Assembly: GCA_035646975.1 (NCBI GenBank)
Contig: DASROJ010000210.1
Location: forward strand, 1 to 37,879
From: Patescibacteria group bacterium
Lineage (GTDB): Bacteria; Acidobacteriota; Polarisedimenticolia; JACPZX01; DASXTC01
Length of the DNA: 37,879 nt
Direction: 5' to 3'
Below the pieces are notes generated by a model that worked only from the letters and a program-made list of their open reading frames with translations, was not told the origin of the DNA and did no database searches. Shown here piece after piece: positions 3,374 to 14,673 of the stretch; positions within the stretch are counted from its first letter, which is position 1; each line of letters begins with the position of its first letter. The position numbers were made by a program, and so were the translations under genes.

Positions 3374-3991
3374 TCAGGACCTCAGCAGCTTTTCGATCTT
3401 CTTCTTGAACTCATCGATCTGAACCGGCTTCCGCATCCAGTCGGTCGCTCCGCACTGCAGGATTTCCTCCTCGGCGCCGTTCTCGATGAATCCCGAGATT
3501 GCCAGGATTCTGGTGCCGGCGGTCTCCGGGTTCGACTTGATGCGTCGGCACGCTTCGTAACCGTCCATGCGCGGCATCCGAAGGTCGAGGATCAGCAGAT
3601 CCGGTTTCAGATCCCCCACCTTGAGGAGCGCCTCGTAGCCATCTTCGGCCATGTCCACCGACAGGGACGCCTCGACCTCCTGCAGCACATCGCGAAGCGC
3701 CTGGCGCACTTCCTTCTCGTCGTCGACGATCAGGATGCGCTTCGGCTCGAGCACGAAGAAGCTGTCGTAGACAGGCATCTGGTGCTGCACGAGGAATTCC
3801 TTGAAGTCCCGGCTGTCGACGCGAAAGTGGCCACCAGGCGTCCGGAACGCCTTGAGTCGGTTGCTCCGGATCCACTTCTTCACCGCGTTGGTCGAAACAT
3901 CGCAGTAGCGGGCGATCTCGCCCGTGGTCAACAGCCTCGACGAGCCCTGGCCCGTCTCTCTCGGCATTTCGCTCATTTCTGCTGGCCTCAT
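3374..3991 (-). CDS. Response regulator: N-terminal excisionase/MerR-like HTH (HTH_17 type) fused to a C-terminal receiver domain
   Basis: LLTTGEIARYCDVSTNAVKKWIRSNRLKAFRTPGGHFRV HTH; receiver RILIVDDE...DLLILDLRMPRMDG...ISG...KP with the phospho-Asp intact. The start could be 3991, 3976 or 3967. Confidence 0.88.
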   Translation of the reverse strand: MRPAEMSEMPRETGQGSSRLLTTGEIARYCDVSTNAVKKWIRSNRLKAFRTPGGHFRVDSRDFKEFLVQHQMPVYDSFFVLEPKRILIVDDEKEVRQALRDVLQEVEASLSVDMAEDGYEALLKVGDLKPDLLILDLRMPRMDGYEACRRIKSNPETAGTRILAISGFIENGAEEEILQCGATDWMRKPVQIDEFKKKIEKLLRS

Positions 3992-4047: not shown

Positions 4048-4076
4048 AATATATTCAGACCTCTCCAGCCTGTCAA
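4048..4076 (-). promoter_or_regulatory. Sigma70 promoter for the response regulator
   Basis: Minus strand TTGACA-N17-TATATT in an AT-rich intergenic stretch. Confidence 0.7.
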
Positions 4077-4094: not shown

Positions 4095-6329
4095 TCAGGG
4101 GGCCTGGAGCAGCCTTCTGGCCCGTTCAGCGACCGGGGGGCCGTCGTGGCTCCAGAGAGTGGCGTCGAGCTGCGTGGAGGCAGCCGTAAGTTGTTGACGG
4201 GCCTCGGGGATGCGGTTGAGGCGCTGCAGGCACAGCCCTTTCAGGTAGCTGACCGTTCCGGCCGAGATGCCGGCGCCTGGCGCCAGGCTGAGCCGTTCGA
4301 GCGCTTCGCCGAGCGCCGCCTCGTACATCCCATTTTTCATGAGGAGCACGGCAAGACTCAGAAGCGCTGCGTTTCGCTCGTCGCTTCCCGGATGTCCGAG
4401 CGCTTCTTCCAGCCTCGCCCTGAACGACAGCTCGGCAGCCAGCCGGGACGAAAAGCCACCCGGTGCGTCGGGCGAGAGCATCACCGGCGTGGTGCCCACA
4501 ATGATATTGACCTGTCGCGCGGGCGCACCGGCCCCCTGGAGCGACATGGAGGCTTGCGCTCCTTCGTGCAGTGTCGCCAGCGCCGCGGAAAGATCGCGCG
4601 GTGTGGCGATCGGCCGGCCTCCCAGGGAAACGATCGTCTCGCCGATCCTCACTCCCGCTTTCGCGCCGGAGCCGCCCGGCTGCACCCGGTAGACGGTCGG
4701 GTTCATGACCCGATGCAGCTCGATGGCCTGCAGGCCGATCCAGGGCGCGGTGAGCGTCGCCAGCGTGTCGAACCGCTGAAGGAACTCCTTCGTCTGGGTC
4801 TTGTCGTCCAGCGCGATCGTGGCGCGATCGCGCAACGTCGACAGGGGCGCGGCGCCCCCGACGAGTGTCAGCTCGACGCTTCGGCCGAAGGCTCCTTCGC
4901 CAGGCCGGGCCGCGAGGATCAGGTCGGCGCCCGTGGCCGTGGCAACCGAGGAAAGATACGCGGCGGAGAGATCGGCATCTGCCGATGGGCGTTTCCGCGC
5001 CAGAAGAGCTTCGGGAAGACCCGCGCCGGGGCCCAGGACATTCACGCTCTTGAGCTGCCCCAGCAGGTCGCCCAGCTCCTGCTCCCCAGCCGGAGCCTGG
5101 CCGCCGGGGCCGGCGACCGTCATCCCGACATAGGCAAGCGTCATGCGCAGCTTGCCGGTGACCGCCGCGCGTTGCCCCTTCACGACCTCCGAATGTCCTG
5201 TCCATTGCCCCACCGACGGCACGCGCAGCGTCACGTCGTGCCGGCCGCTGCAGATCCCGTCGAGACGGAGGGGCGTCTTGCCGACGGGCTTGCCGTCGAG
5301 GATCGCCTCGGCCCCCGTGGGCGATGAGTCGAGCATCATTCCGCCGAGGCTGGGGCTGAGCTTTATGGGCTCATAGCGCACCGGCAGCAGATCATTGGGA
5401 TCGATCGTGACGGTGATGCTCAGCGCCTGCTGCTCGTAGCAGTCTTTTTCGATCTTCAGCAGATGCGTGCCCGGAGAGACATGGCCGACCTGCAGCGGCG
5501 CGGAGATATCGGCGAGGCTCACGCCGAGTCGCGAGGCCATCTCAGCGTACTCGGCGCCGGCTGCGCCAAACGTGGCGCCGGCCTCTTTGCCGTCCAGACT
5601 GACCTTCGCGCCGGCAGGCGTCGTCGTCACCAGCAGGTCGCGCGCGTTGGGCACCAGGCGCAGCGACCGCTCGAGACGCGCGCCACCGGCGACGACGACC
5701 TTCTCCTGGATCGGGTCGAATCCTTCCATCTCGATCTTCATGTCGTAGGGACCGGCGGAAGTCTCATGGTCGAAGATCGGGGTTCGGCCAATCGGCGACC
5801 CGTTGATCGACACCATCGCGCCGGGCGGCTCGCTGCTGATGTTGAGCGTGCCGACGATCCGCTTGCGGACCTTGTCGTAGATCGCGACGATTTTCGGCGA
5901 GGTGCGTGTGCGATCGATCGGCCAGGAGACGTCGAACTTGATCAGCGCGTCGTAGTCGGCCTCGGCCTCACTGTTGCGGCCCAGGTTCGCGTAGGTGCGG
6001 GCCCTTCCTTCGTAAGCCTGGCCGACGATCTGGCGGGTCAGCGGCATGGTGGAGGACAGCTTGCCCGAGTTCCAGGCGTCGATCACCTCGGTGAACCGTG
6101 CCAGCGCCTCGGGCAGGTCGAGATCCTCGAGCTTCTGGCTGGCCAGCGCCAGCACCGCGCGGTATTTCTCTATCGCGCCCGTGATGTCTTCTTCCTGCTG
6201 GCCCCAGAGAAGCGCCACGCCGAGGAGTGCCACGCCGAGCAGCGCCGGCCATCTCCAGGGCGCCGTCGTTCTCCGCGCGCCGTGCCTACCAGAACCGGAG
6301 TACTGTCTTGCGCCTGGCGTCATGAACAT
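4095..6329 (-). CDS. Exported TPR + multiple PEGA + PDZ domain protein
   Basis: Signal-like ALLGVALLGVALLW; TPR-like helices; PEGA repeats (LNISSEPPGAMVSING, VTTTPAGAKVSLDG, LDSSPTGAEAILDG); PDZ-like WIGL...VQPGGSGAKAGVRIGETIVSLGG; C-terminal TPR. Start moved to ATG 6329 (6323 possible). Confidence 0.8.
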   Translation of the reverse strand: MFMTPGARQYSGSGRHGARRTTAPWRWPALLGVALLGVALLWGQQEEDITGAIEKYRAVLALASQKLEDLDLPEALARFTEVIDAWNSGKLSSTMPLTRQIVGQAYEGRARTYANLGRNSEAEADYDALIKFDVSWPIDRTRTSPKIVAIYDKVRKRIVGTLNISSEPPGAMVSINGSPIGRTPIFDHETSAGPYDMKIEMEGFDPIQEKVVVAGGARLERSLRLVPNARDLLVTTTPAGAKVSLDGKEAGATFGAAGAEYAEMASRLGVSLADISAPLQVGHVSPGTHLLKIEKDCYEQQALSITVTIDPNDLLPVRYEPIKLSPSLGGMMLDSSPTGAEAILDGKPVGKTPLRLDGICSGRHDVTLRVPSVGQWTGHSEVVKGQRAAVTGKLRMTLAYVGMTVAGPGGQAPAGEQELGDLLGQLKSVNVLGPGAGLPEALLARKRPSADADLSAAYLSSVATATGADLILAARPGEGAFGRSVELTLVGGAAPLSTLRDRATIALDDKTQTKEFLQRFDTLATLTAPWIGLQAIELHRVMNPTVYRVQPGGSGAKAGVRIGETIVSLGGRPIATPRDLSAALATLHEGAQASMSLQGAGAPARQVNIIVGTTPVMLSPDAPGGFSSRLAAELSFRARLEEALGHPGSDERNAALLSLAVLLMKNGMYEAALGEALERLSLAPGAGISAGTVSYLKGLCLQRLNRIPEARQQLTAASTQLDATLWSHDGPPVAERARRLLQAP

Positions 6330-7851
6330 AGATCTCCGCGCGCGGGCCGATCGCCAGCGCCGTGGGTGAGCTGAACTCCGCGGCCGTGGCCGGTTGTGAT
6401 TGAATCTTCTGGACAATCTTTCCATCCACCGTCATCACGATCACCGCCGCGGCGCGCTTGTCCAGCACGAACAGGTCGCCGATGTCATCGGCGGCCACCG
6501 CGACAGGCTCCTGCAGCTCCTGGTCGGCGCCAGCCGGCACCGGGACTTCCTTCGACACCCCCTCGGCCGAGATCTCGAGGACCCTGCGCGATCTGCGATC
6601 GATGGTGTAGAGCCTTCCTCCCGCCCCGACGGCCAGACCCGCCAGCCGGGCGCGTCCCGTGGCGTCGCGGTACAGCAGCTTCAGCTTCGCCGCGTCGCCC
6701 GTGTAGAGCAGGATCTCGTTGCGATCCTCATCGAGAAGCGCCAGATCCTTGAGCCCGATACGCACCGCGGCGACGATCCGCGTCAGCGGCCGCGCGGTTC
6801 CCCCTTCCTGCCGGCTGGGCGAAATGCTCTCCGCACCGGATCGGACCTTGCTCCCCGCGGCGAGGATCTCCACGCCGGCCGGATCCAAGGTCAATGACAC
6901 GCCGCCGGGCATCGGCGCGCCGGTGGACAGCAGCTTGCCTTCATGATCCAGCCGGTAGAGCGCGCCCGTGCGACTGTCGAGCAGGTGCAGCGCGTTGGCG
7001 CCATCCACGGCAAGAGCGGCGTCGCCGCGCGCCGCTTCGGCAGGCAGCGCCGGCGCATACGAGGGATCGTGCGCGAAGGGCGGCTTGCCCGACACACCGG
7101 ACCTGACCTTGAGCGTGTAGATCTGTGTCGTGCGGTCGAGACACCGGGAAGCGAGATGGCTGGTGGGATACTGGTTGCGTACGGTCTGAAACTCTTCGAG
7201 CGCGCGGATCCAGGCGCCCTGGTTCATCCAGGCCAACCCCATCTGGTAATGGGCGTCGTCGGCCGCCGGCCCGTGCGGAAACTCTTCCGCCACGCGCGCG
7301 AACGATCCGATTGACTTGTCGTACCGGGCGGCGAGGTAATCGGCGTAGCCGGCGCCGAACAGCGCCCGGTCGACCTGGGGGCTCGCCGGGTAGATGTTCA
7401 CCACACCCGAGAAGGCGGCATAGGCTTCATCGAGACTGCGCTGCGGGTTGGACGGGTCCAGGGCGATCCATCCGAGCTTGAGCAGGGCACCCGGCGCGTT
7501 GTCCTCGCCCGGATACTTCGTCTTGATCTTCTGGAACAGGTCCCGTGCCTTGACGATCGACGCTTCGGGGATGGTGCCCAGGGCGTCCACCGTGTCGACC
7601 GGGTAGTAGTAGCTGCCGATCCGAAAAAGAGCGTCATCCGCCAGACCGCTGTCGGGATAGGCGGTGTAGACCTGCTCGAAGTCGCGAAGAGCCTGCTCGA
7701 CCTTGCCTTCCTTCAGCAACTGGTCGGCGTTGTCCAGAGTCCGGTGCGCCAGTTCGTCGTCGGCGGGCGAGCCCAGCGTGAGCGCGCAGGCGAGCACGGC
7801 CGGCCCGACCAGGGCTGCGAGCCGAGCACGGCGCCTTCGAGGGATTCTCAT
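6286..7851 (-). CDS. Exported TPR (BamD/YbgF-like repeats) + NHL-type beta-propeller protein
   Basis: Signal peptide; repeated YPDSGLADDALFRIG / YPGEDNAPGALLKLG / YPASPQVDRALFGAG / FPHGPAADDAHYQMG; C-terminal NHL-like repeats (PVAVAADDIGDLFVLD, PTALAIGPRAEIYVHD). ATG 7851 overlaps the kinase TGA. Confidence 0.8.
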   Translation of the reverse strand: MRIPRRRRARLAALVGPAVLACALTLGSPADDELAHRTLDNADQLLKEGKVEQALRDFEQVYTAYPDSGLADDALFRIGSYYYPVDTVDALGTIPEASIVKARDLFQKIKTKYPGEDNAPGALLKLGWIALDPSNPQRSLDEAYAAFSGVVNIYPASPQVDRALFGAGYADYLAARYDKSIGSFARVAEEFPHGPAADDAHYQMGLAWMNQGAWIRALEEFQTVRNQYPTSHLASRCLDRTTQIYTLKVRSGVSGKPPFAHDPSYAPALPAEAARGDAALAVDGANALHLLDSRTGALYRLDHEGKLLSTGAPMPGGVSLTLDPAGVEILAAGSKVRSGAESISPSRQEGGTARPLTRIVAAVRIGLKDLALLDEDRNEILLYTGDAAKLKLLYRDATGRARLAGLAVGAGGRLYTIDRRSRRVLEISAEGVSKEVPVPAGADQELQEPVAVAADDIGDLFVLDKRAAAVIVMTVDGKIVQKIQSQPATAAEFSSPTALAIGPRAEIYVHDARRKTVLRFW

Positions 7852-9887
7852 CACGGACTGAACTTGAACGGCACCCGCGTTCCGCCGCCGGCCGTGATGG
7901 TCACGCTGGTTTCCTTCGTCTCGCCCGTGGGGACGTACACCGCCTTGATGGTGTAGGCGCCCGCCGCCACTCTGAAGTCGTTGATCGGTGGGGGTCCCAG
8001 ATCGTGGCCGTTGAGCGAGATGGTGCAGTTGCTCGGCGAGGCGAGCACGGTGAGCGTTCCCACGCCCGGGAGCCCGGCGTCTGGCGCCAGCACCTTGTCG
8101 GCCTGCACCGTGACGTTGATCGTTCGCTCCACGAACAGCTCCTCGTTTTTCAGCACCAGCTTGTGCGCGCCGCCCGACAGCTTGATCTGCGCTCCCGAGC
8201 GGCCCAGCTCCTTGCCGTTTTCGAAGATGGAGACCGGGTAGGGCGCCGAGATCTTCACGAACCCCACCGGCACCTTTGCCAGCGTGAGGCTGACTGGTCC
8301 ACCCGGTTTTTCGAGCTTCGTCTCCAGATCCTTGTACCCCTCGAGCCTGAGCGACATGGCGTGCGTTCCGCAGGCCGGCACGGGAATGTCCGCCGGCGTG
8401 ACCTTGCCGGTGTCCTTGCCGTCGAGAAGAACTCTCGCGCCGGCCGGCTGCGTGGTCACCGGCGCCGCCACGATCTTCGGAGTCTTCAGCGGGATCGAGT
8501 GGATCGCGCCGTCGGCGTCCTGCCCGGCGCGCCACGACACCTTCTCGATGAAGCAGTCGTTCTCGGCGACGATGGTGTGCGTCGCGGTCTCCTTTTTCGG
8601 GACATGCATGACGCCGTTGGGCGTCTCCACGTCATCGATGTAGATTTTGCCGCCTGGCGGGCTGGTCTGCCAGGTGATTGCGATCGCGTCGGAGCCTCCG
8701 GGTGTGACGGGAAGGGCTCCCCCGCCGGCTCCGGCGGCAAGGATTCCCGCGGTTCGATAAAACGGCTGCGCTCCCGCCGAATCCGACCGCCCCCATCGAT
8801 CGTCGAGGGTGCCTGCCGCCGGGACGAGCAATACCAGCGCGAGCGCGCCCAGAAGCATGAACCCGACGCGAAGCGGATGCGTCCGGGTGGCCGGCTTCGG
8901 GGCCGCCACGGTCCGCGCGGCGGCCGGGGCGGGCCCAAGCCTGACCGTTCTTGCGGGCGCCATCTCCGGTTTGACCGAGGGCGCGGCGGCCGGGACGGGA
9001 CGGGCCACGACTCTCATCGGGCGTGTGACCCCAACCCCTTCGGCGAGCAGCTCCTCCCCTTCACCCTGCAACGCCGCGGCCAGCGCCGCGGCCAGCGCAG
9101 TTCCCGTCTGGTAGCGTCGGTCCGGATCCTTGGCCAGCGCCCTGACGAGAACCTGCGCGACGTACTCGGGGATCTCCTTGTTGCTCACCATCGGCGCGGG
9201 TGGCTGCTCGTTGAGAATCCTGTAGATGATGGTGGTCACGGTGTCGCCGGGGAATGGCCGCTCGCCGGTCAGCAGCTCGTAGAGCACCGCGGCGAGCGAA
9301 AAAAGATCGCTGCGGCCATCCAGGGTCCTGCCCATCACCTGCTCGGGCGACATGTAGTTGGGCGTCCCGATCAGGATCCCTTCCTGTGTCAGATTGGTTG
9401 TCGGATTCTTCGCGAGACCGAAGTCGGTGATCTTGAGCCGCCCGTTCTTCAGCAGCATCAGGTTGGCCGGCTTGATGTCCCGGTGGACGATCCGCTGCTG
9501 GTGCGCGTAGTCGAGCGCCTCGCAGGCTTGCACGACCAGCCCGATGACCTTGGACACCGGCAGCAGTTTGTCCTTCCGCGTGTACCGCTCGAGGGTCTCT
9601 CCCTCGATGTACTCCATCGCGATGAACCATGTCCCGTCATGTTCGCCGACATCGAAGATGGTGACGATGCCGGGATGCTGCAGCCGGCCGGCGGCCTGCG
9701 CCTCCCGCGTGAACCGCTGCCTTATCTCCTCGGCTTCCAGATCGGGAAGGACGTGCAGGGCATGGATGGTCTTGATGGCGACCTGGCGATCGATGCGCGG
9801 GTCGTGGGCCAGATAGACAACTCCCATGGCCCCATGGCCGATTTCGCTGATGATCTCGTACCGGCCTATGTTCCCAGGGGTCGTCAT
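7851..9887 (-). CDS. Transmembrane Hanks-type Ser/Thr protein kinase with extracytoplasmic PEGA domains
   Basis: GHGAMGVV, VAIK, HRDIKPAN, DFG and GTPNYMSPEQ are all intact; Pro/Ala linker; one TM (GFMLLGALALVLLVP); PEGA repeats (TTQPAGARVLLDG, LASPSNCTISLNG). Confidence 0.92.
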   Translation of the reverse strand: MTTPGNIGRYEIISEIGHGAMGVVYLAHDPRIDRQVAIKTIHALHVLPDLEAEEIRQRFTREAQAAGRLQHPGIVTIFDVGEHDGTWFIAMEYIEGETLERYTRKDKLLPVSKVIGLVVQACEALDYAHQQRIVHRDIKPANLMLLKNGRLKITDFGLAKNPTTNLTQEGILIGTPNYMSPEQVMGRTLDGRSDLFSLAAVLYELLTGERPFPGDTVTTIIYRILNEQPPAPMVSNKEIPEYVAQVLVRALAKDPDRRYQTGTALAAALAAALQGEGEELLAEGVGVTRPMRVVARPVPAAAPSVKPEMAPARTVRLGPAPAAARTVAAPKPATRTHPLRVGFMLLGALALVLLVPAAGTLDDRWGRSDSAGAQPFYRTAGILAAGAGGGALPVTPGGSDAIAITWQTSPPGGKIYIDDVETPNGVMHVPKKETATHTIVAENDCFIEKVSWRAGQDADGAIHSIPLKTPKIVAAPVTTQPAGARVLLDGKDTGKVTPADIPVPACGTHAMSLRLEGYKDLETKLEKPGGPVSLTLAKVPVGFVKISAPYPVSIFENGKELGRSGAQIKLSGGAHKLVLKNEELFVERTINVTVQADKVLAPDAGLPGVGTLTVLASPSNCTISLNGHDLGPPPINDFRVAAGAYTIKAVYVPTGETKETSVTITAGGGTRVPFKFSP

Positions 9888-9941: not shown

Positions 9942-10655
9942 TCAGGCTCCTTTGCGCAGTCTTTCGCCAAGACCCGGTGGAGCCTCCCGGCCCTCCAGGG
10001 CCCGGACGGTCCTGTCGATATCGTATCCAAATCGCCGGAATACGACCTTCACTTCGGCGTCGGCCTGGATCACCGCATAACCGGTCTGCGGGTTGCCATC
10101 CCGGGGCCGGCCGAGACTGGCGACATTGAGGAAGTGTCTGCCATCGATCGAACGGTGGAAGCTGCGGGGCGAGCACCCGATGGCGATGACATCGGCCCTG
10201 GCGGCCTCGCCATACTCGATGAACCGCGCTTCGGGCATCTCCTGGGTCAGGCAGTCATGCATGTCGATCGGGCCGGCATGATACACCGCCACGCGACGTT
10301 GACCGCCGTGGCTGCTCGCGCCGAACGGCAGATCGGCCAGCCAGCGCTTGTCGAGCAGGTCCATCCGCCGCCGGGTCCAGTCAAACGACGCTTCGGCCAG
10401 CGCCTGCTCCGCCGGGTCCGATTCACGGCCACCGCTGTCGTCGCCGTCCCAGCCGATGCCTTCGTCAAAGCCGCCGCGAGCGCCCTGGACGTTTCTGTCG
10501 CGCAGAAAGGCGACGCATTCGTCGGGGTATGGGCCGAAGCCGACCACGTCTCCCGTGTGGGCGATCCAGTCGTATCCTTCTTTCTCAGCCTCCGCCCACG
10601 AGGCTTCCAGGGCGGGGAGGTTGCCGCAGATGGCGCCAAAAACGATTGTCTTCAT
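9942..10655 (-). CDS. Calcineurin-like metallophosphoesterase-fold protein (YfcE/MJ0936-like) with degenerate metal-binding motifs
   Basis: The scaffold matches the family (GNLPALEA, GDVVGFGPYPDE, LNVASLGRPRDGNP), but DxH reads AxC, GNxD reads GGFD and GHxH reads GCSP. ATG 10655 follows GAGG. Confidence 0.8.
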   Translation of the reverse strand: MKTIVFGAICGNLPALEASWAEAEKEGYDWIAHTGDVVGFGPYPDECVAFLRDRNVQGARGGFDEGIGWDGDDSGGRESDPAEQALAEASFDWTRRRMDLLDKRWLADLPFGASSHGGQRRVAVYHAGPIDMHDCLTQEMPEARFIEYGEAARADVIAIGCSPRSFHRSIDGRHFLNVASLGRPRDGNPQTGYAVIQADAEVKVVFRRFGYDIDRTVRALEGREAPPGLGERLRKGA

Positions 10656-10668
10656 GACCCTCAACCTA

Positions 10669-12996
10669 TCAAAGCCCGCGCGTGGCGTTCAAGTCGGGTG
10701 ATCTTCCCACGGCAAACGATACCAGGCCGATCGTGATGGCGAACATCAGCGAGATTGCGGAAACCCATGCCCCGGTGCGAAACCACCGGGGTCGATACGT
10801 CAGCAGCACTTCCGCGTCGCCCGCCGGGACATCCACCGCCATGTACAGATAGTTGGCGCGCCGCACCGGAGCCGGCTTTCCGTTGACGCTCGCCTCCCAG
10901 CCGGCATCCCAGGCATCGCCCACCACAAGGTAACCCGGCGCCCCGGCGCCGCGCAGAACCACGGCGAGCGCGCCCGGGATGTTGCGCTCCAGAGCGATGG
11001 CCGGCGGGGCCGCCGGAGCATCTCCCCCGGATTCCGGAGCCGGCGTCGACTCGATCACCGCCTGCCGGTCCAGGTCGATGCGGCCGGCCGCCAGGCTTTC
11101 CAGAAGACCATCGCGAGACTCCGCGGGGGAAGAAGCGGCGTGCGAGACGAATGACAGACGCGGCCGCGCGCGATCGTTGACGAAGACGCGGCCATCGGGC
11201 CCGTCGTACGCCAGCTGGAGCCCGTCTCCGGAGACCACCGCCTGGGGCGGCGTCACCACGTAGCGCATCCCCAGGAGATCGAGCAACGGCCTCGAGCCGG
11301 CCGGGATCTCGCCGGTCTGGTGGACGTGATCCACCCGGGCCATATCGAGGATGCGCCGGTAGTCGCGCGACTCCGTGGCCTCCAGCCCGTCCGACACGGG
11401 GCCTCCTTCGATCGATGACAGCCAGTAGGGCATCTGTGTTTCGGCGCGCAGGACCGGCCCTACCGTCAGCAGCCGCCCGCCCCTCACCATGTCGGCAGAT
11501 GCGTCCTTCCGAAGAAAGTCGGTCAGACGTGTCGGTGGAAACATCGCCTCGGCGCCGGCGTGGGGGTTTCTGCCCGACGCGAACTGCAGCATGTCCACAC
11601 AGGTGATGGCCGCGATACCGAACGTGTAGATGGCCCGCCCCGACGGACGCAGCAGGACGAGGGTGACGAGCAGCCCGGTGCCTCCCACGAAGAACGCCGC
11701 AAGACGCGCGGCGTTGGGGTCGCGTGTGCCGTATCCCATCGCAACGGCAATCAGGAGAAAGGCGCACAGCAACGTGACGCCGATCAGTGAACCACGTTGA
11801 CGCCACTGCATTCCGGCGCTCGGCTTCGCGTTCTGACCGACTGCTTCGAGTGCTTCGAGGCCTGCCAGGCCAAGAGCCGCCAGGGTCGCCAGGCAGAACG
11901 GCAGCAGCAGGCCCGGCGCCCACCGTGTCCCGGGCGGACCGGATGCCGAAACCGCCGAGACCACCGCGATCGCGACGAAGAAACGGGTCCGGCGCCACCA
12001 GCACAGCGATACCAACGCGAGCAGCAACGCAGCAGCGCCGGCGTACCCCGCCGGGGTCCGCCCGACATGGCCGGGCAGCAGCAGGCTGAGCGTCATGTGA
12101 GATGCGCCCGATGCGCTCGATGCCACCGACGCAGCCCGAGTCGACGCCTCGCCGGCCGCTTCCCGCTCCAGGGACGGCAGCAGCTGAACCGCCGCCATCG
12201 CACAGGCAAGAGCCATCGCGCCGAGGTACATCCCGACCGCCAGACGCGGCCGCGGGGCCTCGCGCAGGCTCCACAGGAAATAGAGCGCCGACAGCCCCAG
12301 GATCTGCAGCGTCGTGCCGCGGTCCCCGCCAAGGTATTGCGCGGCCCCGGCGAACACCAGAAGGAGAAACGGCCCGGACGACTGGCGGGCCGCAAGCGAC
12401 CGGGTCGCATGCATCACCAGCGGCAGCAGCAAGGCAGCGTTGGTGTGCGGAGAACCGAGCCACCCGGTCATGAAGCCGCATAGCGCGAACGACACCGACC
12501 CGGTCACGCAGGATGCCGTGCGGCATCCGAGCCCGGCGAGGAAGATGGCCATGAAGCCACCCGCCAGCACGACCTTCATCAGCATCGCCGCGGTGAACAC
12601 GCGCATCGAGGGGAAGATCCATGCAGGCCAGTGGAGCGGAAAGAAGACGGCCGACTGCGCGTTGGCCACGAACGGGGTCCCGCAGCCCGAATAGGGATTC
12701 CAGAGCGGGATCCATCCACCTTCGAGGCTTCGCGCCGTGTAGAGCTGCCACGGCCAGGCTCGCAGGAGCAGAGCATCCATCGATGCATCCCCCCCGCTGC
12801 CGGGCGCCCCATGCGCTTCCGTCTCGGCGGCATAGGCTTTCCACGGCCACTGTCCGTACTGCGCGCCGGCCGGCGCGATCAGAGCCCCGCGGGTGAGCAC
12901 CGGAGCGTGCAGGGCGACCACCAGGGCGGCCACCACGGCCACCGAGATGAGGACAGGGCCCGCATGAAACAGACGTCCGTCGCGAGAAGCCTTCAC
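10669..12996 (-). CDS. YfhO-family polytopic membrane protein (putative GT-C glycosyltransferase)
   Basis: PLWNPYSGCGTPFVANAQSAVFFP motif, many TM helices, C-terminal AGWEASVNG...RANYLYMAVDVPAG...YRP plus a final TM. GTG 12996 overlaps the aroB stop (GTGA). Confidence 0.8.
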   Translation of the reverse strand: MKASRDGRLFHAGPVLISVAVVAALVVALHAPVLTRGALIAPAGAQYGQWPWKAYAAETEAHGAPGSGGDASMDALLLRAWPWQLYTARSLEGGWIPLWNPYSGCGTPFVANAQSAVFFPLHWPAWIFPSMRVFTAAMLMKVVLAGGFMAIFLAGLGCRTASCVTGSVSFALCGFMTGWLGSPHTNAALLLPLVMHATRSLAARQSSGPFLLLVFAGAAQYLGGDRGTTLQILGLSALYFLWSLREAPRPRLAVGMYLGAMALACAMAAVQLLPSLEREAAGEASTRAASVASSASGASHMTLSLLLPGHVGRTPAGYAGAAALLLALVSLCWWRRTRFFVAIAVVSAVSASGPPGTRWAPGLLLPFCLATLAALGLAGLEALEAVGQNAKPSAGMQWRQRGSLIGVTLLCAFLLIAVAMGYGTRDPNAARLAAFFVGGTGLLVTLVLLRPSGRAIYTFGIAAITCVDMLQFASGRNPHAGAEAMFPPTRLTDFLRKDASADMVRGGRLLTVGPVLRAETQMPYWLSSIEGGPVSDGLEATESRDYRRILDMARVDHVHQTGEIPAGSRPLLDLLGMRYVVTPPQAVVSGDGLQLAYDGPDGRVFVNDRARPRLSFVSHAASSPAESRDGLLESLAAGRIDLDRQAVIESTPAPESGGDAPAAPPAIALERNIPGALAVVLRGAGAPGYLVVGDAWDAGWEASVNGKPAPVRRANYLYMAVDVPAGDAEVLLTYRPRWFRTGAWVSAISLMFAITIGLVSFAVGRSPDLNATRGL

Positions 12997-14144
12997 CGTG
13001 GCGGCGCCGTGTCCAGCATCCCGGCAAGCACCTCCGCCGCCAGGGCATCCTCGAGCAGGATGCCGTAGCCGGACGGACCACGCGCCATCACGCCCAGCGC
13101 CGACGGCAGGACGTAGGCGATCCTTCCGTCCCGGGTCTTCTTGTCGCGACGCGCCGCCTCGAGGATCGACCAGGGCCTCATCGCCGGCCGATCGGCGCTC
13201 AGACGCACCGGCAGCCCGAGCTTCTCCAGCGTCTGCTCGATCGCTTCGGCGGCGGCTCCGGACAGCACCCCGAGCCGCTGCGCCATTCGTGTCTCCGCCA
13301 CCATGCCGATCGACACCGCCTCGCCATGGGTCAGCTCGTATCCCGACAGTGTCTCGATCGCGTGGCCGATGGTGTGCCCCAGGTTGAGGATCTTGCGCAG
13401 GTCCCCTTCCTTCTCGTCGGCCGCCACCACCTCGGCCTTGATCTCGCACGAGCGCGCGATCACCTCGGTGAGCAGCCCCGGCTCGCGCCTCAGCAGGGCC
13501 GGGGACTCGCCGGAGATCCGGTCGAACAGCGCGGCGTCGCGGATCACGGCGGTCTTGACGATCTCGGCCAGCCCCGAGCGGTACTCCCGCTCCGGCAGCG
13601 TGAACAGGAAGTCGGTGTCGATGAACACGGCCGAGGGCTGGTGAAAGGCCCCGATCAGGTTCTTGCCCCTGGCGTGGTCCACTCCCGTCTTGCCGCCCAC
13701 CGACGCGTCCACCATCGCCAGCAGGCTGGTCGGAACCTGCACGCACCTGATTCCACGCAGGTAGGTGGCGGCCACGAAGCCCGCCAGATCGGTCGTCACG
13801 CCGCCTCCCACCGCCACGATCGCCGCGTCACGACCGCATCCGGCCTCGATCATGGCGTCTTCCACGATTTCCTTGGTGGCGCGGGTCTTGTTCGCCTCTC
13901 CGGCGGCAAAGACGATCGTGCCCACCGACAGGCCCGCGTCGACCAGCAGATCGTGGAGGGGCCGGACGTGCAGCGCCGCCACGTTGGAATCGGCCACCAG
14001 GGCGTAGCGCGCGGCGAGATGCCGCTCGATCAGCCAGGTCGCGAGACGGCGGGAGGCGCCCGGACCCACCATCACCGGGTAGGGTGGCGCGGTCCGGACT
14101 TCGAGGGTGATGATGGGGGCGGCCGAAGACTCCGGCGGGGTCAT
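12993..14144 (-). CDS. aroB: 3-dehydroquinate synthase
   Basis: GEANKT, GGGVTTDLAGF, PTSLLAMVDASVGGKTG, GKNLIGAF, NLGHTIGHAIE, HGEAV. Confidence 0.95.
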   Translation of the reverse strand: MTPPESSAAPIITLEVRTAPPYPVMVGPGASRRLATWLIERHLAARYALVADSNVAALHVRPLHDLLVDAGLSVGTIVFAAGEANKTRATKEIVEDAMIEAGCGRDAAIVAVGGGVTTDLAGFVAATYLRGIRCVQVPTSLLAMVDASVGGKTGVDHARGKNLIGAFHQPSAVFIDTDFLFTLPEREYRSGLAEIVKTAVIRDAALFDRISGESPALLRREPGLLTEVIARSCEIKAEVVAADEKEGDLRKILNLGHTIGHAIETLSGYELTHGEAVSIGMVAETRMAQRLGVLSGAAAEAIEQTLEKLGLPVRLSADRPAMRPWSILEAARRDKKTRDGRIAYVLPSALGVMARGPSGYGILLEDALAAEVLAGMLDTAPPR

Positions 14145-14150
14145 CCCCGC

Positions 14151-14159
14151 AGGATATCA
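14151..14159 (-). promoter_or_regulatory. Extended -10 element 6 nt upstream of the aroB ATG (candidate leaderless promoter)
   Basis: Minus strand TG-A-TATCCT-GCGGGG-ATG in an AT-rich patch; no SD. Confidence 0.45.
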
Positions 14160-14169
14160 CGTCATTAAT

Positions 14170-14673
14170 TTACTCCGGAGACGCGAGCTTGCCGAGGTCG
14201 TCGAGGTAGCCGCGCACCAGGGATCGGTGCTTCTCCTCGTCCAGCGACGTCTTGATGAGACGGGACGTCGCGGCGAGGACCAGGTCGACCGATTGCTCCC
14301 TGATCTCGCGCACCGCCGCTCTTTTCTGCCGCTCGAGGTCTTCGGAGAACTGCTTTGCCTTGTCCTCGGCCTCACGATGGGCCCGCGCGAGGATGTCGGC
14401 ACGGACCTGCTCGGCATCCCGCTGGGCCTTCTCGATGATCGCCGCCATCTCATGACGCGCCTTGGCCAGCATCTCGCGATGCTGCGCCATCAGCTTTTCC
14501 GCCTCCTCCCTGGCCTGCCGGGCCTGCTCGAGCGACTCGCGTATCGTCTTCTCGCGCTCGTCCAGCAGGGCGAGCAGGGGCTTCCAGGCGACGGCCCGCA
14601 GAATCCCCAGCAGGACGAGGAAGGTGAACACCGTCCAGATGATGAGACCGGGATCGATCTCTACCAGTTTCAT
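14170..14673 (-). CDS. atpF: ATP synthase F0 subunit b
   Basis: IDPGLIIWTVFTFLVLLGILRAVAWKPLLALLDERE followed by a long charged coiled coil. Confidence 0.93.
   Translation of the reverse strand: MKLVEIDPGLIIWTVFTFLVLLGILRAVAWKPLLALLDEREKTIRESLEQARQAREEAEKLMAQHREMLAKARHEMAAIIEKAQRDAEQVRADILARAHREAEDKAKQFSEDLERQKRAAVREIREQSVDLVLAATSRLIKTSLDEEKHRSLVRGYLDDLGKLASPE

Follow-up and report, generated by a model that had tools for sequence, protein, structure and literature searches.

A conserved, putative three-gene operon of Acidobacteriota predicted to equip a PEGA-type Ser/Thr kinase with separately encoded periplasmic sensor modules

A 37,879-nucleotide (nt) stretch of contig DASROJ010000210.1, hereafter the window, has a G+C content of about 65% and carries three long open reading frames (ORFs) that lie head to tail on the minus strand between positions 4095 and 9887. 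In order of transcription they encode a Hanks-type Ser/Thr kinase with a PEGA ectodomain, an exported protein that joins TPRs to an NHL propeller (the propeller protein), and an exported protein built from TPR, PEGA and PDZ domains (the PDZ protein). We judge it somewhat more probable than the alternatives taken together that these genes form one conserved operon encoding a multi-protein extracytoplasmic receptor that controls the kinase: in essence, a "split PknD" joined by a PDZ co-receptor. The evidence that carries this reading comprises gene structure, domain architecture, export signals, an intact kinase, synteny throughout the phylum and conserved junction geometry. Database homologues are assigned to Candidatus Polarisedimenticolia, phylum Acidobacteriota.

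Receptor Ser/Thr kinases are already a familiar kind of protein; what appears to be new here, judging from the sequence, is that the putative sensor modules are encoded in trans. We know of no earlier case in which the sensor of a bacterial Ser/Thr kinase is assembled from separately encoded periplasmic proteins. Should these proteins form a receptor, it would be the first trans-assembled sensor of this sort known to us. Not only would it give the widespread PEGA domain a defined role, but it would also open a route to the ligand class of NHL sensor propellers such as that of PknD. Few soil bacteria are more abundant than the Acidobacteriota. Their genomes each encode dozens of Hanks kinases, yet to our knowledge their means of sensing the environment have scarcely been explored. 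The present 3.2-Mb assembly contains at least 25 Hanks kinase matches. A first-pass annotation of the same DNA could point to no named system with this layout; likewise, a full-text literature search returned no published description of PEGA kinases with such partners, nor of PEGA/PDZ/TPR periplasmic systems.

Gene order and junctions

The three co-directional, overlapping ORFs were described in the first-pass annotation, and re-reading of the sequence returned the same ORFs, coordinates, direction and overlaps (Table 1). At the first boundary, the stop codon of the kinase gene (TGA, 7853-7851) and the start codon of the propeller gene (ATG, 7851-7849) share one base, giving the TGATG that had been reported and a 1-nt overlap. 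The second overlap, originally put at about 40 nt, comes to 38 nt, or to 44 nt with an alternative ATG. The propeller gene ends at TAG 6288-6286, and no in-frame start codon lies between this stop and the hydrophobic signal core of the PDZ protein, which limits the start of the PDZ gene to ATG 6329 (44-nt overlap) or ATG 6323 (38-nt overlap). The latter is preferred because GGAG lies 10 nt 5' of it and because its Met lines up with that of the "MT..." N-termini of database homologues, where it is invariant. One public gene call for an identical PDZ-protein sequence (P0001, 712 amino acids (aa)) uses a GTG start 32 codons downstream, within the signal core and without an overlap. We think that this call is wrong, though the 38- or 44-nt overlap depends on start-site inference.

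Table 1. Features of the cluster and its surroundings. All coordinates are positions in the 37,879-nt window; amino acid numbers of the PDZ protein are counted from ATG 6329. AF2, AlphaFold2 model.
Feature	Position	Strand	Basis
Gene 1, Hanks-type Ser/Thr kinase with PEGA ectodomain, 678 aa	7851-9887	minus	ORF, Pfam
Kinase catalytic domain, cytoplasmic, aa 10-265	9093-9860	minus	Pfam PF00069
Single transmembrane helix of the kinase, aa 339-359, LRVGFMLLGALALVLLVPAAG	8811-8873	minus	read from sequence
Extracytoplasmic domain of the kinase, four PEGA-type beta-sandwich repeats	7854-8810	minus	Pfam PEGA
TGATG junction, kinase stop/propeller start	7849-7853	minus	read in sequence
Gene 2, exported TPR and NHL-propeller protein, 521 aa	6286-7851	minus	ORF, Pfam, AF2
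TPR region of the propeller protein, aa 29-253, 11 helices, two YbgF/CpoB-type TPR_6 modules	7093-7767	minus	AF2, TIGR02795, TIGR03302, PDB profiles
Predicted six-bladed NHL beta-propeller, aa 278-520	6292-7020	minus	AF2, Foldseek, PDB profile
Propeller/PDZ gene overlap, 38 nt (44 nt with ATG 6329)	6286-6323	minus	start-site inference
Gene 3, exported TPR/3xPEGA/alpha-beta/PDZ/TPR protein, 742 aa	4095-6323	minus	ORF, Pfam, AF2
N-terminal TPR-like helical domain of the PDZ protein, aa 49-158	5856-6185	minus	AF2; weak TPR_2, TPR_16 matches
Three PEGA-type beta-sandwich domains, aa 159-403	5121-5855	minus	Pfam, AF2
Unnamed alpha/beta domain, aa 404-525	4755-5120	minus	AF2 secondary structure
Predicted HtrA/RseP-type PDZ domain, aa 527-615, W-x-G loop	4485-4751	minus	PDB profiles, Foldseek, alignment
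C-terminal TPR-like helical domain, aa 627-742, conserved DGPxVA motif at end	4104-4451	minus	AF2, alignment
Metallophosphoesterase-like gene, context only, 54-nt gap to kinase	9942-10664	minus	weak Metallophos matches
YfhO-family membrane protein, context only, GTG start	10669-12996	minus	Pfam
Promoter-like site TTGACA-17-TATATT, 11/12, just past PDZ-gene stop	4048-4076	minus	motif match
Response regulator with HTH_17 and receiver domains, downstream	3374-3991	minus	ORF, domain match

Conservation across Acidobacteriota

Whole-genome searches of 40 relatives placed the three proteins side by side in most of them. Forty loci, 20 from 15 families of class Polarisedimenticolia and 20 from other Acidobacteriota families, were scored with profile hidden Markov models built from database homologues. 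The full trio, in the same order and on the same strand, is present in 18 of the 20 class loci, the two exceptions being one frameshifted, fragmentary locus and one locus with truncated partners. Of the 20 loci from elsewhere in the phylum, 13 contain it and 19 have the propeller and PDZ genes next to each other. Co-conservation of the three genes had been set beforehand as the point on which the idea of a functional module could fall, and it did not fall there. The most stable core of the unit is the propeller-PDZ pair, not the kinase.

Two wider samples of 301 genomes, all from Acidobacteriota, extend this pattern. The PDZ-protein family was found in 145 of 301 genomes, or about half, and the propeller family (counted at E <= 1e-20) in 86. 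In 76 of these 86 the propeller gene lies directly upstream of a PDZ-family gene on the same strand, and in most of the ten exceptions the two genes sit on separate, mostly short contigs of fragmented assemblies. The cassette is single-copy in most genomes sampled.

The neighbourhood is far less constant. The first-pass annotation had extended its expectation of synteny to the pseudophosphatase (the metallophosphoesterase-like gene of Table 1) and YfhO genes upstream, and here only the three-gene part stood. YfhO adjoins the trio only in the window's own family, and the metallophosphoesterase gene, near it in 6 of 21 class loci, is missing from the vicinity in all 20 loci outside the class. 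The genes for aroB and the F0 b-subunit precede the cluster in much of the class, and the response regulator adjoins it only within the order. Since order and strand are kept while the flanks vary, the trio behaves as a unit and the pseudophosphatase and YfhO genes as lineage-local neighbours.

Junction geometry is conserved along with gene order. Across the 40 loci, the propeller and PDZ genes very often start at position -4 or -1, counted from the end of the preceding stop codon (junctions of the ATGA, GTGA and TGATG types); other junctions are overlaps of 20-45 nt or gaps of less than about 45 nt. For the kinase/propeller junction in particular, most orthologous loci have a start at -4 or -1, or a gap of less than about 45 nt. 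Such geometry is as expected for genes translated in a fixed ratio, and suggests translational coupling.

The annotation of these families in databases is sparse. Where homologues have names at all, they are "PEGA domain-containing protein", "tetratricopeptide (TPR) repeat protein" or "hypothetical protein", none of them functional, and among ten distant members of the PDZ family almost none has a name. The PDZ-protein profile matched 2,085 cluster representatives at E <= 1e-30. Full-length matches in a single stretch make up at least about a hundred of the best 150, and some of the other representatives are unrelated multi-PEGA repeat proteins.

The kinase

A complete catalytic core places the first protein among the Hanks-type Ser/Thr kinases. 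It matches PF00069 over aa 10-265 (E 6.7e-52; 176.9 bits against a cut-off of 31.7), and the window copy carries GHGAMGVV (GxGxxG), VAIK, HRDIKPAN (HRD), DFG and MSPE (SPE) motifs; the catalytic motifs are intact in 33 of 33 orthologues. Behind the transmembrane helix follow about 320 aa with four PEGA stretches (PF08308; E 5.5e-22 for the whole protein and 8.3e-24 for the isolated ectodomain, or 77.9-83.7 bits against a cut-off of 20.8). The first-pass description of a catalytically intact kinase with extracytoplasmic PEGA domains thus agrees with profile and motif analysis alike. Its observation that PEGA repeats are common to the kinase and the PDZ protein is matched by a profile cross-match between the kinase ectodomain and the PEGA region of the PDZ protein.

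The kinase belongs to neither the PASTA nor the PknD type, because the defining ectodomains are absent. Its best NCBIfam match, PknB/Stk1 (NF033483), reaches 324.5 bits against a cut-off of 450 and covers the catalytic part only (aa 8-310), with four PEGA repeats standing where PASTA repeats would be expected. The PknD model (NF009651) gives 172.6 bits against a cut-off of 839, and the propeller resides in the next gene. In one relative (L050; G185:C23, 4546-7239, plus strand) the kinase orthologue is an 898-aa protein with two tandem catalytic domains, and a PP2C gene lies just upstream.

The propeller protein

Both partner proteins bear N-terminal signal-like segments, in the window copies as well as in orthologues, and no catalytic domain was detected in either by Pfam, PDB-profile, Foldseek or NCBIfam comparison, in line with their first-pass description as exported proteins without recognizable catalytic domains. 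In the propeller protein, Pfam recognizes TPR_6, YfiO and NHL, the last at 21.7 bits against a cut-off of 20. The AlphaFold2 model (predicted local distance difference test (pLDDT) 90.2; predicted TM-score (pTM) 0.84) comprises 11 helices at aa 29-253 and 25 strands at aa 278-520. Together with Foldseek and Pfam, these strands assign the C-terminal part to a predicted six-bladed NHL propeller. Among the six-bladed NHL matches returned by Foldseek are Thin, TRIM71, TRIM2 and the ectodomain of Mycobacterium tuberculosis PknD; target TM-scores are 0.73-0.77 for Thin, TRIM71 and PknD, with PknD (1rwl) at 0.77. A PDB profile match to PknD (1rwi, E 3e-15) points the same way.

The TPR region resembles two TPR_6-type periplasmic proteins, CpoB/YbgF and BamD, and is an orthologue of neither. 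PDB profiles match it to CpoB (6g5s), YbgF (2xev) and BamD (3qky). It scores 84.9 bits in two stretches with TIGR02795 (YbgF/CpoB; cut-off 90.1) and 74 bits with TIGR03302 (BamD; cut-off 81.4). The "BamD-like" label of the first pass therefore holds as far as the BamD match goes, with the qualification that the region is equally or more YbgF/CpoB-like and that both scores lie below their cut-offs. Orthology to CpoB is rejected because stronger YbgF genes exist elsewhere in these genomes (for example at G000:C54 of the present assembly, 111.7 bits); in addition, the TPR region is here fused to a propeller. Identity as a BamD/YfiO lipoprotein fares no better, with a score below the cut-off and no conserved lipobox Cys. 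The signal peptide of the window copy does contain "VLAC", but the signal peptides of orthologues lack a Cys at that place, so the protein is not a conserved lipoprotein.

The PDZ protein

In the PDZ protein, Pfam detects PEGA (E 1.5e-34; 118.2 bits against a cut-off of 20.8), which makes this protein, like the kinase, a member of PF08308, and PDZ_6 (E 7.6e-8; 32.4 bits against 27); the AlphaFold2 model has a pLDDT of 87.3. PDB profiles match the PDZ domain to DegP, DegQ, DegS and RseP (E 1e-16 to 1e-5), and Foldseek aligns it with DegS bound to C-terminal peptides resembling those of outer-membrane proteins. The domain can thus be assigned to the HtrA/RseP type with a predicted peptide-binding loop: in the W-x-G carboxylate-binding loop, W530 and G532 are invariant in 17 sequences, and the loop is kept throughout the phylum (39 sequences), with G532 present in at least 90%.

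Between the PEGA domains and the PDZ domain lies an alpha/beta domain (aa 404-525) that has no Pfam match even at E values up to 10, despite confident AlphaFold2 secondary structure. Across the phylum, no other part of the protein is conserved so little. A hidden protease or caspase-like domain was considered for this region and rejected: besides the lack of a Pfam match, the long Foldseek alignments to HtrA have root-mean-square deviations of 10-15 Å and extend barely beyond the PDZ domain. Assignment of the whole protein as an HtrA/DegP/DegS protease fails as well, since TIGR02037 yields 26 bits against a cut-off of 416, confined to the PDZ domain, and it is the alpha/beta domain that precedes the PDZ domain.

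Two cysteines, C297 and C360, in the second and third PEGA domains (about 5250-5441, minus strand) are nearly invariant across the phylum, within K-D/E-C-Y/F and C-S/A-G motifs; the pair is compatible with a periplasmic disulfide. One family carries three tandem PDZ-family paralogues within about 10 kb (G256:C1:4084828-4096164; G313:C1:3342325-3352785), with the propeller gene adjoining in G256.

Variant loci

Loci that depart from the standard arrangement offer clues to how the parts relate. Two distant lineages have a PP2C phosphatase gene immediately upstream of the kinase, and in another lineage the kinase is preceded by an FHA protein and a second kinase. Taken with the intact kinases and the other variants, these neighbours tie the cassette to Ser/Thr phospho-signalling. 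In one locus (L048; G104:C9, 12648-13337, minus strand), the kinase position upstream of the propeller and PDZ genes is occupied by a 229-aa protein with a transmembrane helix and PEGA domain and without a kinase domain. This arrangement speaks for the PEGA ectodomain as the element with which the two partners act. The same locus has a kinase-domain-like fragment nearby on the opposite strand.

In two lineages without an adjoining kinase, L053 (G045:C4; upstream gene at 4955-6829, plus strand) and L055 (G211:C1; upstream gene at 12568-14397, minus strand), the gene upstream of the propeller-PDZ pair differs: one lineage has an HExxH (M48/BepA-like) peptidase there, the other an FHA-GAF protein. 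In L021 (G011:C270, 5891-9802, minus strand) the propeller and PDZ profiles match a single 1304-aa open frame that lacks the final blade of the propeller and has the signal peptide of the PDZ protein in its interior. The two genes are either naturally fused here or were misassembled, the metagenome-assembled genome being 75% complete. Variants of these kinds—kinase-less, with PP2C, with FHA, or split across the genome—are natural comparisons for experiments.

Proposed mechanism

For a receptor of this composition we infer co-translation, a physical complex, a ligand and a direction of signalling, as follows. The kinase would span the inner membrane once and present its four PEGA repeats to the periplasm, and the two downstream proteins would be made from the same mRNA in near-fixed proportion. 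Once exported, the soluble propeller and PDZ proteins would dock on the PEGA ectodomain of the kinase and on each other, through TPR contacts and possibly PEGA-PEGA contacts. The PDZ domain might then capture an envelope-derived protein C-terminus or a hydrophobic peptide, and the propeller face might bind an envelope-derived ligand of its own. Ligand capture would alter the oligomerization or activity of the kinase, and Ser/Thr phosphorylation in the cytoplasm would thereby signal the condition of the envelope. The first-pass annotation had proposed a periplasmic scaffold that would sense envelope or protein-folding state and signal through the kinase.

A more specific version of this scheme strikes us as unlikely. 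It envisages a tripartite "split-sensor" receptor specific to diderm Acidobacteriota, in which a PknD-like propeller is supplied in trans and a PDZ co-receptor reads exposed C-termini (for instance, on outer-membrane or cell-wall proteins left unassembled). By docking on the PEGA ectodomain, the two would switch the Hanks kinase. If true, such a receptor would be a counterpart, based on Ser/Thr phosphorylation, to the envelope-stress pathways DegS/RseP or Cpx; it would also be the first apparatus for ligand sensing to be defined in PEGA kinases.

Several observations weigh against a receptor that controls the kinase. The kinase is the least stable member of the cluster, and 5 of the 20 loci outside the class have the propeller-PDZ pair without an adjoining kinase or PEGA stub (L048 being counted separately). 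Three of these five genomes were searched for a candidate elsewhere; a kinase-sized protein with a similar PEGA ectodomain was present in two, and none was detectable in the third. In one complete genome the PDZ gene stands alone, 335 kb from a propeller gene that is itself adjoined by a kinase-sized PEGA protein. Comparison of orthologues also gave no candidate for an in-cluster PDZ ligand, since neither the kinase nor the propeller protein ends in a conserved tail that could serve as one: the kinase tail varies among orthologues, and the C-terminus of the propeller protein (…VLRFW) forms the last propeller strand in the AlphaFold2 model and becomes …VVVLE, among others, in different lineages. 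Finally, distance matrices of the proteins correlate only moderately (r 0.41-0.57). With control for the kinase catalytic domain, the partial r is 0.29-0.47. The comparison as a whole was not counted as evidence, the distances being saturated (mean about 2) and having no independent control for species.

Alternative explanations

The lower stability of the kinase lends weight to a different reading, which we hold to be doubtful yet the most substantial of the alternatives. The propeller and PDZ proteins could act on their own as a periplasmic scaffold, or as a machine resembling a chaperone, in building or maintaining the envelope. Outer-membrane proteins or enzymes of the cell wall might be handled in this way, for example, in the manner of BamD, CpoB, NlpI-Prc or DegP; the PEGA membrane protein would be the inner-membrane anchor and the kinase domain an optional, loosely coupled add-on. 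That the pair is steadier than the kinase (19 against 13 of the 20 out-of-class loci, and 76 of 86 genomes) would follow naturally, as would the kinase-less transmembrane-PEGA variant and the M48-type HExxH peptidase found upstream of the pair in one lineage; the resemblance of the TPR modules to YbgF/CpoB and BamD, and of the PDZ domain to HtrA, fits also. However, neither protein has a protease or other catalytic domain, and true YbgF orthologues are encoded elsewhere in these genomes. In most lineages, moreover, the first gene encodes a fully intact kinase, and several lineages have added PP2C or FHA genes to the cluster.

An enzymatic role for the propeller is improbable. On this account the NHL propeller would be a lyase, lactonase or amidating-lyase-like enzyme acting on an envelope glycan or peptide, and the cluster would be a modification pathway, possibly with the upstream YfhO-type glycosyltransferase, instead of a sensor. 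Foldseek does return virginiamycin B lyase (target TM-score 0.55-0.61) and peptidyl-alpha-hydroxyglycine alpha-amidating lyase (0.60), and a YfhO-family gene is indeed found upstream in the window, but the best structural matches, at the higher target TM-scores given above, are non-catalytic NHL binding domains, and YfhO adjacency is limited to the window's own family. In the orthologue alignment, the conserved residues of the propeller are the Gly, Asp and Leu of the repeat scaffold; a His or a set of metal ligands is not among the invariant positions, and this speaks against an enzyme similar to either lyase. Least credible of all is that three functionally unrelated genes happen to be neighbours, their overlaps a by-product of a compact, GC-rich genome. 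The window does contain many stop/start pairs that overlap, as at aroB/YfhO, and the cluster lies within a long co-directional string of unrelated housekeeping genes; yet its order and orientation persist phylum-wide while aroB, YfhO, the metallophosphoesterase and the response regulator come and go, and this synteny argues strongly against chance.

Comparison with known systems

The putative kinase receptor, which remains our preferred reading, can be set beside several characterized systems. M. tuberculosis PknD (1RWI, 1RWL) is similar in its parts, combining an intact Hanks kinase, one transmembrane helix and a six-bladed NHL propeller outside the cell membrane. There, the propeller is fused to the kinase; here, it belongs to a separate exported protein, fused to TPRs and encoded just after the kinase, whose own ectodomain is four PEGA repeats and which is accompanied by a third, PDZ-bearing protein. 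We know of no described ligand for the PknD propeller. The PASTA kinases (PknB, PrkC and StkP; NF033483) offer the closest catalytic domain and the same single-pass receptor layout. They commonly cluster with a PP2C phosphatase and FHA proteins, and such neighbours recur in other lineages of the present cassette. The cassette differs in its lack of PASTA repeats, in its diderm host phylum and in sensing modules that would be supplied by extra proteins.

Separately encoded periplasmic partners are known from histidine-kinase systems. Examples are ExoR-ExoS/ChvI, in which ExoR is a Sel1/TPR-like periplasmic inhibitor, CpxP-CpxA and RcsF-IgaA. As in the arrangement proposed here, a membrane kinase is set by repeat-module proteins encoded apart from it; the Hanks Ser/Thr output, the presence of two partners, and the NHL, PEGA and PDZ domains set the present case apart. 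DegS/RseP and the wider HtrA family share its type of PDZ domain, with the conserved carboxylate-binding loop. Unlike them, the PDZ protein has no trypsin-like or metalloprotease domain, and its output would go through binding and not proteolysis.

A periplasmic TPR protein paired with a PDZ-bearing protein also has precedent in NlpI-Prc (PMC5686067) and LbcA-CtpA (PMC8764530, PMC11021448). In those pairs the PDZ-bearing members, Prc and CtpA, have protease activity, and the TPR proteins NlpI and LbcA are lipid-anchored. The pair described here resembles them in composition. It differs in containing no protease, in having a TPR protein without a conserved lipoprotein signal, and in its attachment to a kinase.

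Flanking genes

The cluster closes a long co-directional string that runs through nuo, the F0 atp genes, aroB, YfhO and the metallophosphoesterase gene, as indicated by two tight junctions: the aroB stop overlaps the GTG start of YfhO (GTGA, 12993-12996, minus strand), and the YfhO and metallophosphoesterase genes are 4 nt apart (10664-10671, minus strand). On the downstream side, the response regulator is unlikely to be a member of the operon. A strong promoter-like site occupies the 103-nt gap that precedes it, marking it as a separate unit, and its adjacency to the trio is an order-level trait. It is an unusually constrained regulator, being 91% identical to its orthologue in a genome of the same family where the trio is only about 55% identical.

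The position between aroB and the kinase, held by the YfhO and metallophosphoesterase genes in the window's family, is filled differently in the sister family. One locus (L014, 11367-14372, minus strand) has there a 1001-aa protein with repeated MopE-like Cu-binding motifs, and another (L015, 12204-15968, minus strand) has a 1254-aa ORF at the same place.

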